In this document: positions 23,794 through 58,660 of the stretch, one piece after another
How the letters are laid out: each line of letters starts with the position of its first letter
How positions within the stretch are numbered: the stretch's first letter is position 1
Assembly (NCBI RefSeq): GCF_018977255.1
Contig: NW_024704933.1
Location: forward strand, 1-64,000
Reading direction: 5' to 3'
Length of the DNA stretch: 64,000 nt
From: Callorhinchus milii
Taxonomy: Eukaryota
The notes under the pieces: generated by a model
What the model saw: only the letters and a program-made list of their open reading frames with translations
Told to the model about the DNA's origin: nothing
Database searches by the model: none
Program-made: the position numbers and the translations under genes

Positions 23794-23885
23794 ATGAGTT
23801 CTCTCCGACACACGAGCTGCTCCCCGCTGCTGCTGGGACTCTGCACCTTGGCACAGCTGTGGGCAGTCGCGGGCGCCTCTTGGTG
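23794..23885 (+). CDS. wnt5-like: Wnt5-like exon 1 (signal peptide)
   Basis: MSSLRHTSCSPLLLGLCTLAQLWAVAGASW(W); donor gtaaat splits the Trp codon in phase 2, matching exon 2 and the Wnt5 SWW|SL junction. Confidence 0.8.
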
Positions 23886-23977
23886 GTAAATGCGAACCGT
23901 CGCTGTCTTCCTCCTCACTGCTGCGATGAGCGCACACGTTTCTAAGTTTATTTAGCAACCTTGCCTAATATTTTGCT

Positions 23978-24880
23978 ACTATACACTACACTACTATACA
24001 CTACACTATACACTACTATACACTACACTTTACACTACACTATACACTACACTATACACTACTATACACTACACTATACACTACTATACACTACACTTTA
24101 CACTACACTATACACTACTATACACTACACTATACACTACTATACACTACACTTTACACTACACTATACACTACACTATACACTACTATACACTACACTA
24201 TACACTACATTATACGTTTGTTTGTGTTTTGTTTAACGCCTCGTAGCGGCAGCGCTTCCGTGACCAATGTCAGCCAGTTTTTTTGGGGGGTTGGATCGCG
24301 TGAAATGTACAAACGTGTCGTTAAAACCCGCCGACACAGTCAATTAGTAAGGGCTGTCGCCAGACAAAGCTAGCTGTAGTTGTACTAACTGGCGAAATGT
24401 CGCGGTACTCGGATTATAAATATTGTGGCTTGGCTCTCCAACACACCGGTGTGCTGTACTAGTATACTACACTATACACTACATTATACACTACACTATA
24501 CACTACACTATACACTACACTATACACTACTATACACTACTATACACTACACTATACACTACACTATACACTACTATACACTACATTATACACTACTATA
24601 CACTACTATACACTACATTATACACTACTATACACTACACTATACACTACACTATACACTACTATACACTACACTATACACTACTATACACTACACTATA
24701 CACCACACCTCAGAGGTGGGACAAAGTCATTATTATGCACTGACTCGAGTCCAAGTCACATGACTCGAGTCCACACCTCTGCTATACACTACACTATACA
24801 CTACACTACTATACACTACACTACTATACACTACACTACTATACACTACTCTACACTAAACTATACACCACACTATAAAC
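23978..24880. repeat. (TACAC/TACTA)n microsatellite blocks
   Basis: Blocks at 23978-24215, 24462-24705 and 24783-24875. Confidence 0.9.
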
Positions 24881-25424
24881 GACACACTAGTGCTATACTC
24901 GTGACGAATTGGCATGTTCTGTTTACGTGACAACCCTCACTAGGTGGCTGTGTCCGGTGGTGGTGGGTTTGAATGACGACACGACACAGATTCTCAATAC
25001 GGAGGGGAAAAACAAGAGGGACCCGGAGAAAAATCCACACGACCGTGGGGAGACACACACAAACTACAAACATACAGCAGCAGCAACAGGCATTTTAAGG
25101 GGTTGGGATCAAACCCACGATCTCCTGTATACCAGGCGAGGTAGTTAACATCTCCTAGCCACCACGACGATGAGAGAGAGACGCAAACTTAGAATATACA
25201 ACAACAGGCATCAGGGTTGGGATCAAACCTACTACCTCCTGCACACCAGGCGAGGTAGTTAACATCTACTAGCCGCCACGACGATGAGAGAGAGAGAGAC
25301 AGGCAAACTTCTAATATACATCAACAGGCATCAGGGTCGGGATCGAACCTACTACCTCCTGCATACCAGGCGAGATAGTCAACATCCCATGGCCACCGTG
25401 ACTCCCCCCCCCCCCCGCCCGCAG

Positions 25425-25663
25425 GTCGCTGGCACTGTGGGCTCCCAACTTCGACCCCTCCGAGTATCAGCTGCTGTGCATCATGGCGCCGGGGCTATCC
25501 CCCGAACAACGCAGAATATGCCGGCAGCACCCGATCCACGTGCCGCACGTGGCCGAGGGTGCCCGGCTGGCGCTCGCCGAATGTCAGCACCAGTTCCGGG
25601 CCAAGCGGTGGAACTGCACCACGCCCGGCGCGGAAGATGCTCTCGACCCCATAGCTCGGTCAG
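25425..25663 (+). CDS. wnt5-like: Wnt5-like exon 2
   Basis: ccgcag acceptor and gtaagg donor; LCIMAPGLSPEQRRIC...EGARLALAECQHQFRAKRWNCT. Confidence 0.93.
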
Positions 25664-27251
25664 GTAAGGGGATCGTCGCCCGGGTCAGAGCGAGCGTCGG
25701 AGTTTCCCCTTGACGCTAACTTTTGTTTGACCCCGAGCTGCGACGAGCGGCTCCGATGCTTGCATTGTCTTCGCACTGATCGCCATCCGGCGGTGTTCTC
25801 TGGTCTACCTCCCTTTTATGCCCCTGGCTCTGCCTTCGGCTACGCCCCCTTCTGGAAGCTACCAGAAGGTTCTGGGACAGATCTGCCAGCCACCATCACT
25901 ACGCCCCCTAGGGACCCGTTCTGTGACACTGCATGCCTCACTGGCAGAGAGGGCTACTGCAACTCCCAGTTGCCCTTTCTATCAGTAACTGGCGCTAGGT
26001 GCCCAAGCGACCTATGCTATGTCACTACAGTAGTATAGTAGTGTGTAGTGCGTGCCAGTATAGTGTCATGTGCATGTAACATCCTGGAAGCGCGACGCGG
26101 TCACCGGCTATTCGATGGCCGGCCAAAACCCGCCGCTAAATGAGCAGTGAGCAGACGTCGCAACCGGGTACCCAACACCCGTACCCTACCCCATACCCGT
26201 ACCCTACCTGATACCCGGCCTGTACGGGTAGGCCGTGAGTCACTGGTGAGTCACCGTTTGTCACTCATTTCCCAACGTCTTGTCTCTTCTCACAATTCAA
26301 GTTCCTAGAATCAACCCACCCGCGCCTGCAACATGGCTTCATCCCAGAGGTCGCATTCGGGTACCCGATACCCGTACCCGTTTGCGACCCTGGTGCGGCC
26401 GGGTACGGGTAAGGAATCAAAACCCGTTTGCGACTTCTGGCAGTGAGGCGGAGTGGCAAGGAGCTGCTGCAGACCCTTCAAGTGGGGGTTGGTCACCCTG
26501 CCGAGGTTTGGCCCAGACAGTCCCCAGCTATTGAGCTGTGTCTTGTGTCTCACAAGGTGATTCGTAATCAACATTATTTATAAATGTGTTGTAACCCTCC
26601 ACCACCCGACACGGCCAATCAGCAAAAAAGTGTCACGTGACAAAAGACAAATAGTTCACTGCTTTAGCCCACCGGTGTGTTGAAGCGTGAAACCACAACA
26701 TAAAAAAAAAAATTTGGTTTCACGCTTCAACACACGTGTTAAACTTACAAGGTGCTTGTTTAAAACCAAGGTTTTTTGTGTTAGATGGCATCAACATAAA
26801 TGTGGTGGTGTTATCCCGCCACCATCCGACACAGCCGATTTAGTGAGGTTTAGTATCTTGTTAACTCTGTCACTTATGATTGCAAGTTGTTGCGAGTCAA
26901 TGACTGCTTTAGTGTTAAAATATGGTGCTGTGTTTTAAGGATAATGTGTTTATATTATCATTTTATGTAGATATCCACATTTATTTAATATTTTTCTTCC
27001 ACAGTTTTTATTGAAAATGCAATATTTGCTATCTCAAAAACCTGATGTGATAGACAAAAACTGATGCCAGATATTGGAATCAGCACCCCAAAACTACCTT
27101 AACACCGTTGGAATAACTCATGCCAGAAAACAGTGTGTTGACCAGTGTACTAGAGAAAAGAAACCCCTCCATTATATACACAATTGATCAAATTGTTTTG
27201 TCGGCGGGGCTAATTGGGCTCTTTGGTCGGGTCGGGGTGGGGGGGCTCCAG

Positions 27252-57352: not shown

Positions 57353-57853
57353 CAGAGGTCGCAAACGGGTTTTGATTCCTTACCCGTACCCGTACCCGGC
57401 CGTACCAGGGTCGCAAATGGGTACCCGTACCCGTACCCGGCCGGGTACAGGTAGCCGTATCCTACCCGTACCCGTACCCTACCCGAAATGAGTGACAAAT
57501 GGTTACTCACCAGTGACTCACGGCCTACCCGTACCCTACCCGAAATGAGTGACAAATGATTTCTCACCAGTGACTCACGGCCTACCCGTACCCGTACCCT
57601 ACCCGAAATGAGTGACAAATGGTTACTCACCGGTGACTCATGGCCTACCCGTACCCATACCCTACGCGAAATGAGTGACAAACAGTTACTCACCAGTGAC
57701 TCACGGCCTACCCGTACCCTACGCGAAATGAGTGACAAACGGTGACTCACCAGTGACTCACGGCCTACCCGTACCCATACCCGGCCGCACCAGGGTACGG
57801 GTAGCCGGGTATCGGGTAGGGTACGGGTATCGGGTACCTGATTGCGACCTCTG
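57353..57853. mobile_element. hAT-like MITE with (GTACCC)n and ~57-63-bp internal tandem units
   Basis: TIR CAGAGGTCGCAA / TTGCGACCTCTG; 8-bp TSD accttcgt / acgttcgt. Confidence 0.88.
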
Positions 57854-58029
57854 ACGTTCGTCCAATCCAGGACATTTGGGAGCTCTGTGCCGCTGCTCTT
57901 GGGTTGTGAATGTTTGTGCGTTGAACTGTTTTCGCGCCGCACGTAGCCAACCGTCGATTGTGTAAATGTCAGTTGGTTGCTCCCGTGTCCTCAATATGGC
58001 CGTTGTTCTTTGTGTTTCCCACAATGCAG

Positions 58030-58133
58030 TGCACGAGAGTTCGACGATAGGGCCTTCCAGCGGAGGCAGCACCGCAAGTTCTCCGCGGAGCCACTTGGCA
58101 ATGGTGCCGCCCATCCCTACGCAACTGCCTCAG
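58030..58133 (+). CDS. adgrl: Latrophilin Ser/Thr/Pro-rich linker exon
   Basis: tgcag / gtaacg sites; phase 1 to phase 0 bridges the flanking exons exactly; VHESSTIGPSSGGSTASSPRS...PTQLPQ. Confidence 0.7.
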
Positions 58134-58497
58134 GTAACGGTGGTGGTGGTAGCAGCAATAGTGTTGGCAGTAGTGGTGGTGGTGATGATGGTGGGGAGCA
58201 GTGGTGTAGCGGCTAGCACTATGCTGCGCTACGAACCCGGCGACCCGAGTTTGATTCCCGCTCACGGCCAACACCGCTGACGATTATTTGAACCGGTCCT
58301 GGGACTCCTTTCCCAGATCAAATCAGCCTCAAATAAGCACCTGGCGCGGAGTGTAAGAACATGGTAGTCGTGGCGAGCGGTGGCGTGGTGGTTGGCGCAC
58401 TGCACCTGCGATCGGCACGGTTGGCTCCGTACGGTGCGAAAGAGGTTCAACTTACAACACTTGCGCTCGACTCTTCAATGGCGCGTCTCCACCGCAG

Positions 58498-58660
58498 GAC
58501 ACGACCGACGTGACACCGGGAGACGTGGCGCCCGCTGGCGGTGGCCAGGGCAGCACCAGCGTGCCCACATCGTGTCCCCCCACGCTCGCCCACGCCGTCC
58601 AGTGGCCCCAGCTGCTGCGGGGCAAGACGGCGGAGAGGCCCTGTCCTGCAGGCGCCGTCG
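58498..58660 (+). CDS. adgrl: Latrophilin exon: start of hormone-receptor (HRM) domain; gene continues beyond window
   Basis: SCPPTLAHAVQWPQLLRGKTAERPCPAGAVG resembles C......VQWP...G..VERPCPKG; gtgagt donor. Confidence 0.85.

Follow-up and report, generated by a model that had tools for sequence, protein, structure and literature searches.

A Wnt5 gene without the lipidation serine, on probable germline-restricted lamprey DNA in an assembly labelled Callorhinchus milii

To which organism does a fast-evolving Wnt5-like gene beside a latrophilin (ADGRL) gene belong, is it confined to the germline, and what could its product do? These questions are raised by the first 64,000 nucleotides of contig NW_024704933.1 (forward strand; here called the window), from the RefSeq assembly GCF_018977255.1, which is labelled as elephant shark, Callorhinchus milii. 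A first-pass annotation, made from the letters of the sequence, had proposed that both genes lie on germline-restricted lamprey DNA and form one signalling module there. The reading favoured here, to which a probability of roughly 0.6 is given as a whole, is that the window is contaminant germline lamprey DNA encoding a non-lipidated Wnt5, which would be a modulator in germ cells that is independent of Porcupine and Wntless and acts outside two-site Frizzled binding.

The Wnt5-like gene occupies 23794-36602 on the + strand, with six exons (Table 1), GT-AG introns throughout and a single open frame of 384 amino acids. The protein matches Pfam wnt (PF00110, E 1.7e-81). Of five exon pieces that were scanned singly, four match it as well and the 31-amino-acid last exon does not. 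Its closest solved structure is Wnt-5a (E 7e-80), and the tree relied on here (38 rows, with the columns of the three hairpins dropped and partial and redundant rows left out) places it inside Wnt5, with somatic lamprey Wnt5 as its sister (support 99/98). It contains two N-glycan sequons, and its linker is longer and Gly-rich compared with vertebrate Wnt5a/Wnt5b. Among proteins, 100 % identity is reached by XP_042201913.1 (P0001) alone, which is labelled C. milii and placed on a 101,503-bp contig. Because its last 384 residues are the window Wnt and its 63-residue N-terminal extension maps to repeat DNA or DNA adjacent to long terminal repeats (LTRs) in the window (20806-20868 and 21698-21800), this model was evidently built on the window DNA itself. 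Translation most probably begins with the ATG at 23794. An L. reissneri model, P0010, has a derived Wnt5 fused to a FOXO3-like C-terminus, which is probably an annotation join.

The next-best matches of the Wnt are 96 % identical over 46 % of the query in the lamprey L. reissneri, 56-65 % in P. marinus and 43 % in a ray Wnt5b. For the window ADGRL, likewise, identity is 94-98 % with five proteins of L. reissneri and 50-61 % with those of jawed vertebrates. A second Wnt of the same clade is labelled C. milii, XP_042201962.1 (P0021), on an 88-kb contig, and it is nearly identical to P0003 of L. reissneri; a tree in which the two C. milii-labelled Wnts are forced together with nine Wnt5 rows of jawed vertebrates can be rejected (p-AU 3.3e-34). 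At least half of the words sampled from exons 4-6 were found in 4 of 17 public runs, covering three organisms and three studies; one of these four runs may be the source. Judged by what it encodes, the window is Lethenteron-type lamprey DNA, and it is most likely a contaminant scaffold in the C. milii assembly. The first-pass annotation had held that an organism other than a lamprey would count against it; the assembly label does name one, and the sequence is nonetheless lamprey. True elephant-shark DNA, acquired from a lamprey by recent horizontal transfer, is extremely improbable. The label on two RefSeq models would fit such a transfer, but behind either label there is a single small contig (of 101 kb and of 88 kb), two genes with their introns and repeats are lamprey-like across 64 kb, the proteins are nearly identical to those of L. 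reissneri, and the repeat flanking the Wnt is present in many copies in the organism from which the contigs over the Wnt exons come. No published notice of lamprey contamination was found in a literature search from which subscription papers were mostly out of reach. Further lamprey scaffolds may sit in the C. milii assembly. At least two RefSeq models named Callorhinchus milii Wnt-5a-like (XP_042201913.1 and XP_042201962.1) are lamprey genes, and can mislead work on gene families of jawed vertebrates.

When the window Wnt is compared with solved Wnt5a, all three hairpin motifs are found to be altered. Hairpin 2 puts a Phe opposite the lipid serine (S244) of CKCHGVSGSC, hairpin 1 has no WXWGG and hairpin 3 has no WCC. 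The four cysteines that are missing go two by two, and the two lost from hairpin 1 are a pair that we take to be bonded to each other. Lipidation by Porcupine needs an acceptor serine, and because this is absent it is near certain that the window Wnt has lost its lipid. In Wnt5a, Wntless is contacted by W177 and W179 of WXWGG, by acylated S244 and by W361-C362-C363 of WCC, of which the cysteine pair is a vicinal disulfide; W177A, W179A and W361A cut secretion, and hairpins 2 and 3 are the two Frizzled contacts (PMC13434646; here and below, published work is cited from the passages and supplementary tables available). The Wntless contacts and the two-site Frizzled contacts are predicted to be gone from the window Wnt.

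These changes extend across a clade of lamprey genes, counted as 77 rows including isoforms, of which 19 were placed by a quick tree (51 rows, hairpins included) and the others by cluster or motif; 11 do not contain the region. Serine is present at the lipid site in 0 of the 66 scored rows (47 Phe, 15 Thr and 4 His). Among 94 named Wnt controls it is present in 92, with one Thr and one row without the region, and among 150 Wnt representatives obtained by 50 % clustering it is present in 135 of the 146 scored. Combined loss of the serine and the hairpin-3 cysteines occurs in only two of the 150, both with motifs of the lamprey clade. Most clade members, including the window copy, have also lost WXWGG and WCC. 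The L. reissneri subclade of P0004, P0027 and P0028 has Thr at the serine position, retains WCC and has lost WXWGG, and the P0004/P0027 subclade is a possible intermediate in motif loss. An assembly error can be discounted for the motif in exon 4, because an independent DNA contig (run X2, record 11) agrees with 0 differing letters and the motif recurs in 10 further L. reissneri models.

Hairpin 2 is shortened in P0006-P0009, and motif loss is graded across the clade. Exon 4 (35553-35669) is a symmetric 117-nt exon that contains all of hairpin 2, and the hairpin-2 region is absent from the sea-lamprey models P0050, P0051 and P0054, which suggests thumbless isoforms.

Whether the gene is restricted to the germline was judged from its relatives. 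The sea-lamprey list of germline-specific genes holds 15 WNT5 and 8 ADGRL rows (PMC10166183 Table S3), bearing out what the first-pass annotation had said of such paralogues. The window Wnt falls in a 15-row clade (100/100, stem 0.65) with three of the listed WNT5 accessions, XP_032801421.1, XP_032800882.1 and XP_032800292.1 (rows P0048, P0151 and P0152), for which the log2 sperm/blood values are 2.2, 9.0 and 8.7, respectively (PMC10166183 Table S3). The sister of this clade is a canonical Wnt5 of lampreys, placed on pieces of 10-18 Mb; the L. reissneri clade members are on contigs of 20-383 kb, whereas canonical lamprey Wnt5s are mostly on the 10-18 Mb pieces. By coordinate match, the three sea-lamprey cousins correspond to LOC116937338, LOC116937873 and LOC116938414. 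Their gonad expression is 636-2154 in prospective males and 6-23 in females (PMC9090840 supplement), and they are the germ-cell-enriched WNT5 transcripts of a further study (10.64898/2026.06.10.731425). By this kinship, the window is very probably germline-restricted lamprey DNA. The corresponding proposal of the first-pass annotation can thus be kept for the lamprey origin and, from the trees and germline tables, as likely for the compartment, under an assembly label that says elephant shark.

A somatic or polymorphic dispersed copy, in lamprey DNA that is not eliminated, is an improbable alternative. It would be in keeping with a germline status drawn from relatives and not from tissue-labelled depth, and with the nine Wnt5a copies of L. 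reissneri, whose coverage was judged inconclusive in a preprint with no mention of 'palmit' in its available passages (10.1101/2025.07.04.663182). However, the clade contains three published germline-specific genes, and all of its L. reissneri members are on small contigs. Programmed DNA loss has been confirmed in L. reissneri, in a report whose available passages do not mention 'wnt' (10.64898/2025.12.15.694513), and germline restriction is put forward here to account for the Wnt5a expansion of that species, with its low and 'inconclusive' coverage. Runs X12 and X2, which are different samples of the same study and organism, gave depth in 25 of 30 bins, with exon 4 uncovered and the flanking repeat deep, and in 30 of 30 bins, respectively; their contigs carry no tissue label and are of a kind from which absence cannot be read, and they were not used as evidence.

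Outside the hairpins, the protein has been kept. The window Wnt has 20 of the 24 canonical cysteines (binomial p 0.0008) at a non-cysteine identity to the somatic sister of 154 out of 307 (~50 %), with the frame still open. Conserved columns are kept at 79 of 94 positions outside the hairpins and at 15 of 33 inside them (Fisher p 4e-5). Of its 16 positions, the rewritten hairpin 3 shares 13 with a sea-lamprey copy and 6 with the somatic sister. In the AlphaFold model the Wnt fold is retained, with a mean pLDDT (predicted local distance difference test) of 75.7 including the false N-terminal extension; hairpins 2 and 3 are modelled as beta-hairpins (pLDDT about 73-92) and hairpin 1 with low confidence. 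All 10 of the significant Foldseek matches are Wnts. Four runs were compared, of which X5, X7 and X12 contain under half of the sampled exon 4-6 words, as do 13 of the 17 runs in all. X5 and X7 showed the exon 5-6 joint across its GT..AG intron, whereas X2 and X12 did not.

In the history proposed here, a single somatic Wnt5 paralogue of lampreys gave rise to the window Wnt5, which was then amplified in the germline compartment. The three hairpin motifs, which serve lipidation by Porcupine, export through Wntless and the binding of Frizzled at two sites, would have been lost with the core fold kept. The putative leader and the two N-glycan sequons would route the protein through the endoplasmic reticulum (ER), and the non-lipidated product would leave the cell as a soluble protein without Porcupine or Wntless, as WntD does. 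In the gonad it would act through the core surfaces that it has kept and would most probably modulate ordinary Wnt5 signalling, be it as a decoy, a competitor or the ligand of a lipid-independent partner, for example the ROR cysteine-rich domain, which has no lipid pocket (PMC11219042). Candidate partners are therefore this ROR domain, a Frizzled bound in the manner of WntD and, for a decoy, parts of the ordinary Wnt5 pathway. It is more tentatively suggested that the amplified family of lipid-free, Wntless-independent lamprey Wnt5s supplies soluble germ-cell signals or Wnt antagonists that act via a new surface, which would make it an independent vertebrate counterpart of WntD and a candidate in gonad or sex differentiation. 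Removal from the soma may have permitted a potentially interfering ligand to arise.

Another possibility is that a Phe-tipped thumb takes the place of the lipid and that the protein still enters the Frizzled groove, as a weak binder or an antagonist, without Porcupine. Phe is at the serine position in 47 of the 66 scored rows, both hairpins are modelled as beta-hairpins at the pLDDT given above, and non-lipidated WntD binds Fz4 (PMC3206050). However, hairpin 3, the second Frizzled contact, has been rewritten too and 19 of the 66 rows have Thr or His, and docking of this kind is considered quite unlikely.

It is unlikely, although less so, that this is a decaying germline-restricted Wnt5, transcribed under relaxed selection, with a product that is stuck in the ER or inert and hairpin changes that are drift. 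The branches are long, the germline Wnt clade evolving at about ten times the rate of the somatic sister, many of its RefSeq models are partial or exon-skipped, some sea-lamprey copies keep only 17-19 of the 24 cysteines, and the neighbouring ADGRL is frame-broken. Against decay, the 384-amino-acid frame is open in a gene that has diverged from the somatic sister by ~50 %, more cysteines are kept than expected by chance, with the losses concentrated in the hairpins, the derived hairpin 3 is common to two genera, and the sea-lamprey cousins are strongly expressed in the gonad.

The rate, the partial models and the further cysteine losses, which fit relaxed selection too, also weigh against the favoured reading of a working, non-lipidated modulator, as do several other points. 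Function, secretion and binding are predicted from what was observed, namely the motif loss, the kept core, the splicing and the clade. Germline restriction of the locus rests on kinship and not on depth in sperm versus soma; the window Wnt is in a separate subclade, ~63-65 % identical to the sea-lamprey copies, so the coverage and expression data are those of cousins, and one of the three cousins is enriched by only log2 2.2 in sperm over blood (PMC10166183 Table S3). For the Fisher test, the limits of the hairpins were chosen after the alignment had been viewed, and the fold model draws on an alignment of mainly canonical Wnts. With regard to transcripts, the X7 contig (record 29) joins exons 4-5 but starts within intron 3, and one spliced contig is from a paralogue and not the window copy. 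The RNA status of X5 and X7 is a guess, none of the 17 public runs with exon 4-6 words being recorded as RNA. In the germline gene table, no entry was found for the terms frizzled, ROR2, PORCN, Wntless or LRP6, so that no co-evolved receptor was seen there.

The second gene is represented by the 5′ part of an ADGRL, seven exons on the + strand (46747-58660) in which SUEL, OLF and HRM follow the order of the ADGRL ectodomain; the gene continues past the window, outside which its 3′ part, where GAIN/GPS and the 7TM region would be expected, lies. From the Wnt stop to the ADGRL ATG there are 10,144 bp, in agreement with the ~10 kb and shared strand first described. When compared with L. reissneri proteins it has two 1-nt frame breaks, both in G runs, which could be assembly errors or real; among one-base gaps between retroelement copies, 13 of 21 are in runs of at least 2, which is compatible with either origin of the ADGRL breaks. 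The window ADGRL belongs to a 12-row multicopy clade (100/99) whose sister is the ADGRL on Lampetra chromosomes of 30-33 Mb. This matches chromosome 1, where the somatic homologue of germline ADGRL is placed (PMC10166183 Table S5), the germline link being one of tree shape only. None of the Table S3 ADGRL accessions is among the homologues found for the window ADGRL.

The proposal that Wnt5 and ADGRL are kept adjacent as one germline signalling unit would draw on their common strand and 10 kb spacing, and on derived Wnt5 being present on 5 of 14 sea-lamprey scaffolds and 1 of 7 L. reissneri contigs with multicopy ADGRL (pieces equated by equal size only). However, both families are multicopy and would be expected to share megabase scaffolds, no scaffold is common to the 15 WNT5 and 8 ADGRL rows (PMC10166183 Table S3), the window ADGRL is frame-broken as assembled, and the four germline ADGRL3 rows are all 0 in a column whose meaning is not established (PMC12184396 supplement). 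The module is therefore not upheld and is thought decidedly unlikely, although marginally less so than the non-eliminated copy considered above. In the reading favoured here, the ADGRL would be an independently amplified germline passenger.

In the multicopy ADGRL clade, all seven members with a GPS (P0189, P0314, P0315, P0196, P0197, P0331 and P0334) have HLNN, where somatic and jawed-vertebrate ADGRLs have HLTN or HLTS; the self-cleavage threonine is thus lost, at a site outside the window. The precomputed domains of the same seven models do not include PF16489 (GAIN) or PF02354. Germline latrophilins of this clade are possibly non-cleaved and shortened. In P0188 and the cluster members P0310, P0311 and P0313 of L. 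reissneri, on several small contigs, the SUEL-OLF ectodomain is joined to an Eph-receptor ligand-binding domain, either as a real germline chimera or as a repeated annotation join.

Young retroelements are present around both genes, as had been claimed: the LTRs of the element at 39773-46428 have 0 substitutions over 530 columns, its target is duplicated, and long frames are open in it and in the long interspersed nuclear element (LINE) of the Wnt gene. In the array at the start of the window, LTRs are at about 1-886, 6612-7487, 13149-13992 and 19814-20696. Decayed gypsy and LINE fragments are present near the ADGRL exons, at 53500-54900, 59460-60500 and 61200-62330. No exons of ERC or CACNA2D were seen among window open reading frames (ORFs) of at least 120 amino acids, in which no search was aimed at them.

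Table 1. Positions of the gene parts and retroelements in the window.
Feature	Position	Strand	Content
Wnt5-like exon 1	23794..23885	+	ATG, hydrophobic leader; aligns with XP_042201913.1 (P0001) from residue 64
Wnt5-like exon 2	25425..25663	+	PF00110, E 2.5e-14
Wnt5-like exon 3	27252..27547	+	Hairpin 1; WXWGG motif and two cysteines lost
Wnt5-like exon 4	35553..35669	+	Hairpin 2, Phe at the lipid-serine position
Wnt5-like exon 5	35887..36199	+	Linker and C-terminal domain
Wnt5-like exon 6	36505..36602	+	Hairpin 3, WCC replaced (KEQLRWNV), stop codon
ADGRL exon 1	46747..46821	+	Leader; 1-nt frame break in G run near 46795 (versus P0188/P0189)
ADGRL exon 2	48844..49039	+	SUEL lectin
ADGRL exon 3	50607..50716	+	SUEL lectin
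ADGRL exon 4	53033..53304	+	Olfactomedin
ADGRL exon 5	55600..56166	+	Olfactomedin; 1-nt frame break, G run 55963-55971
ADGRL exon 6	58030..58133	+	Ser/Thr/Pro linker
ADGRL exon 7	58498..58660	+	Start of hormone-receptor domain
LINE in Wnt intron 3	29923..32886	+	Open 987-amino-acid endonuclease/reverse transcriptase frame
Ty3/gypsy LTR retrotransposon between Wnt and ADGRL	39773..46428	-	1799-amino-acid ORF, CATG duplication
Three head-to-tail ~6.6-kb Ty3/gypsy units	1..20847	+	LTRs shared, units 95-99 % alike

Germline-specific lamprey WNT5 and ADGRL genes have been published (PMC10166183, PMC9090840, PMC12184396, PMC10972751), and what is added here is that the lipid serine is missing throughout the clade and the other two hairpin motifs in most members, together with the database contamination. 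The sea-lamprey germline WNT5A/WNT5B genes (XP_032800292.1, XP_032800882.1 and XP_032801421.1; PMC10166183 Table S3, PMC9090840, PMC12184396) are of the same clade, multicopy and off the ordinary chromosomes, with the serine and WXWGG lost; unlike them, the window Wnt belongs to a Lethenteron subclade, 63-65 % identical. They have been treated as ordinary ligands, with a speculated likeness to mammalian WNT4, and proposed as candidates in sex differentiation (PMC12184396). Motif loss is not mentioned in the searched passages of these papers (PMC10166183, PMC9090840, PMC12184396), a PIP-seq preprint contains no mention of palmit, porcupine, frizzled or serine, and the literature search described above found no published notice of it. 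If the proposed loss of lipidation holds, Porcupine inhibitors should not block lamprey germline WNT5s and standard Frizzled reporters may miss them, and a vertebrate Wnt clade in which each of the three motifs for export and receptor contact has gone would supply soluble Wnt scaffolds.

Similarly, the sea-lamprey germline ADGRL2/3 genes (PMC10166183 Tables S3, S5) are, like the window ADGRL, in a multicopy clade that is sister to a somatic ADGRL on a piece the size of chromosome 1; the window copy differs in its two frame breaks. Vertebrate Wnt5a/Wnt5b (PDB 9z67, 9z4h; PMC13434646) are like the window Wnt in fold, PF00110, 20 of the 24 cysteines and, through the somatic lamprey paralogue, Wnt5 ancestry, whereas their S244, WXWGG and WCC have no equivalents in it.

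Drosophila WntD (PDB 4krr; PMC10112924, PMC3206050, 10.1101/2025.07.02.662750) is likewise a divergent, lineage-specific Wnt without the lipid serine and with a link to germ cells, in that it affects the migration of primordial germ cells, and it leaves the cell without Wntless (PMC10112924, 10.1101/2025.07.02.662750). WntD is reported to be unglycosylated, in contrast to the two N-glycan sequons of the window Wnt. It is also presumably single-copy, unlike the multicopy clade of the window Wnt. Orthology of the two was considered and rejected, since the window Wnt is nested in vertebrate Wnt5 (in a tree drawn without WntD) and WntD is the weakest of its 10 solved-structure matches (E 8e-10). 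According to the available passages of reviews, every analysed Wnt except Drosophila WntD bears palmitoleate, and the lamprey germline Wnt5 clade is likely to be a second exception.

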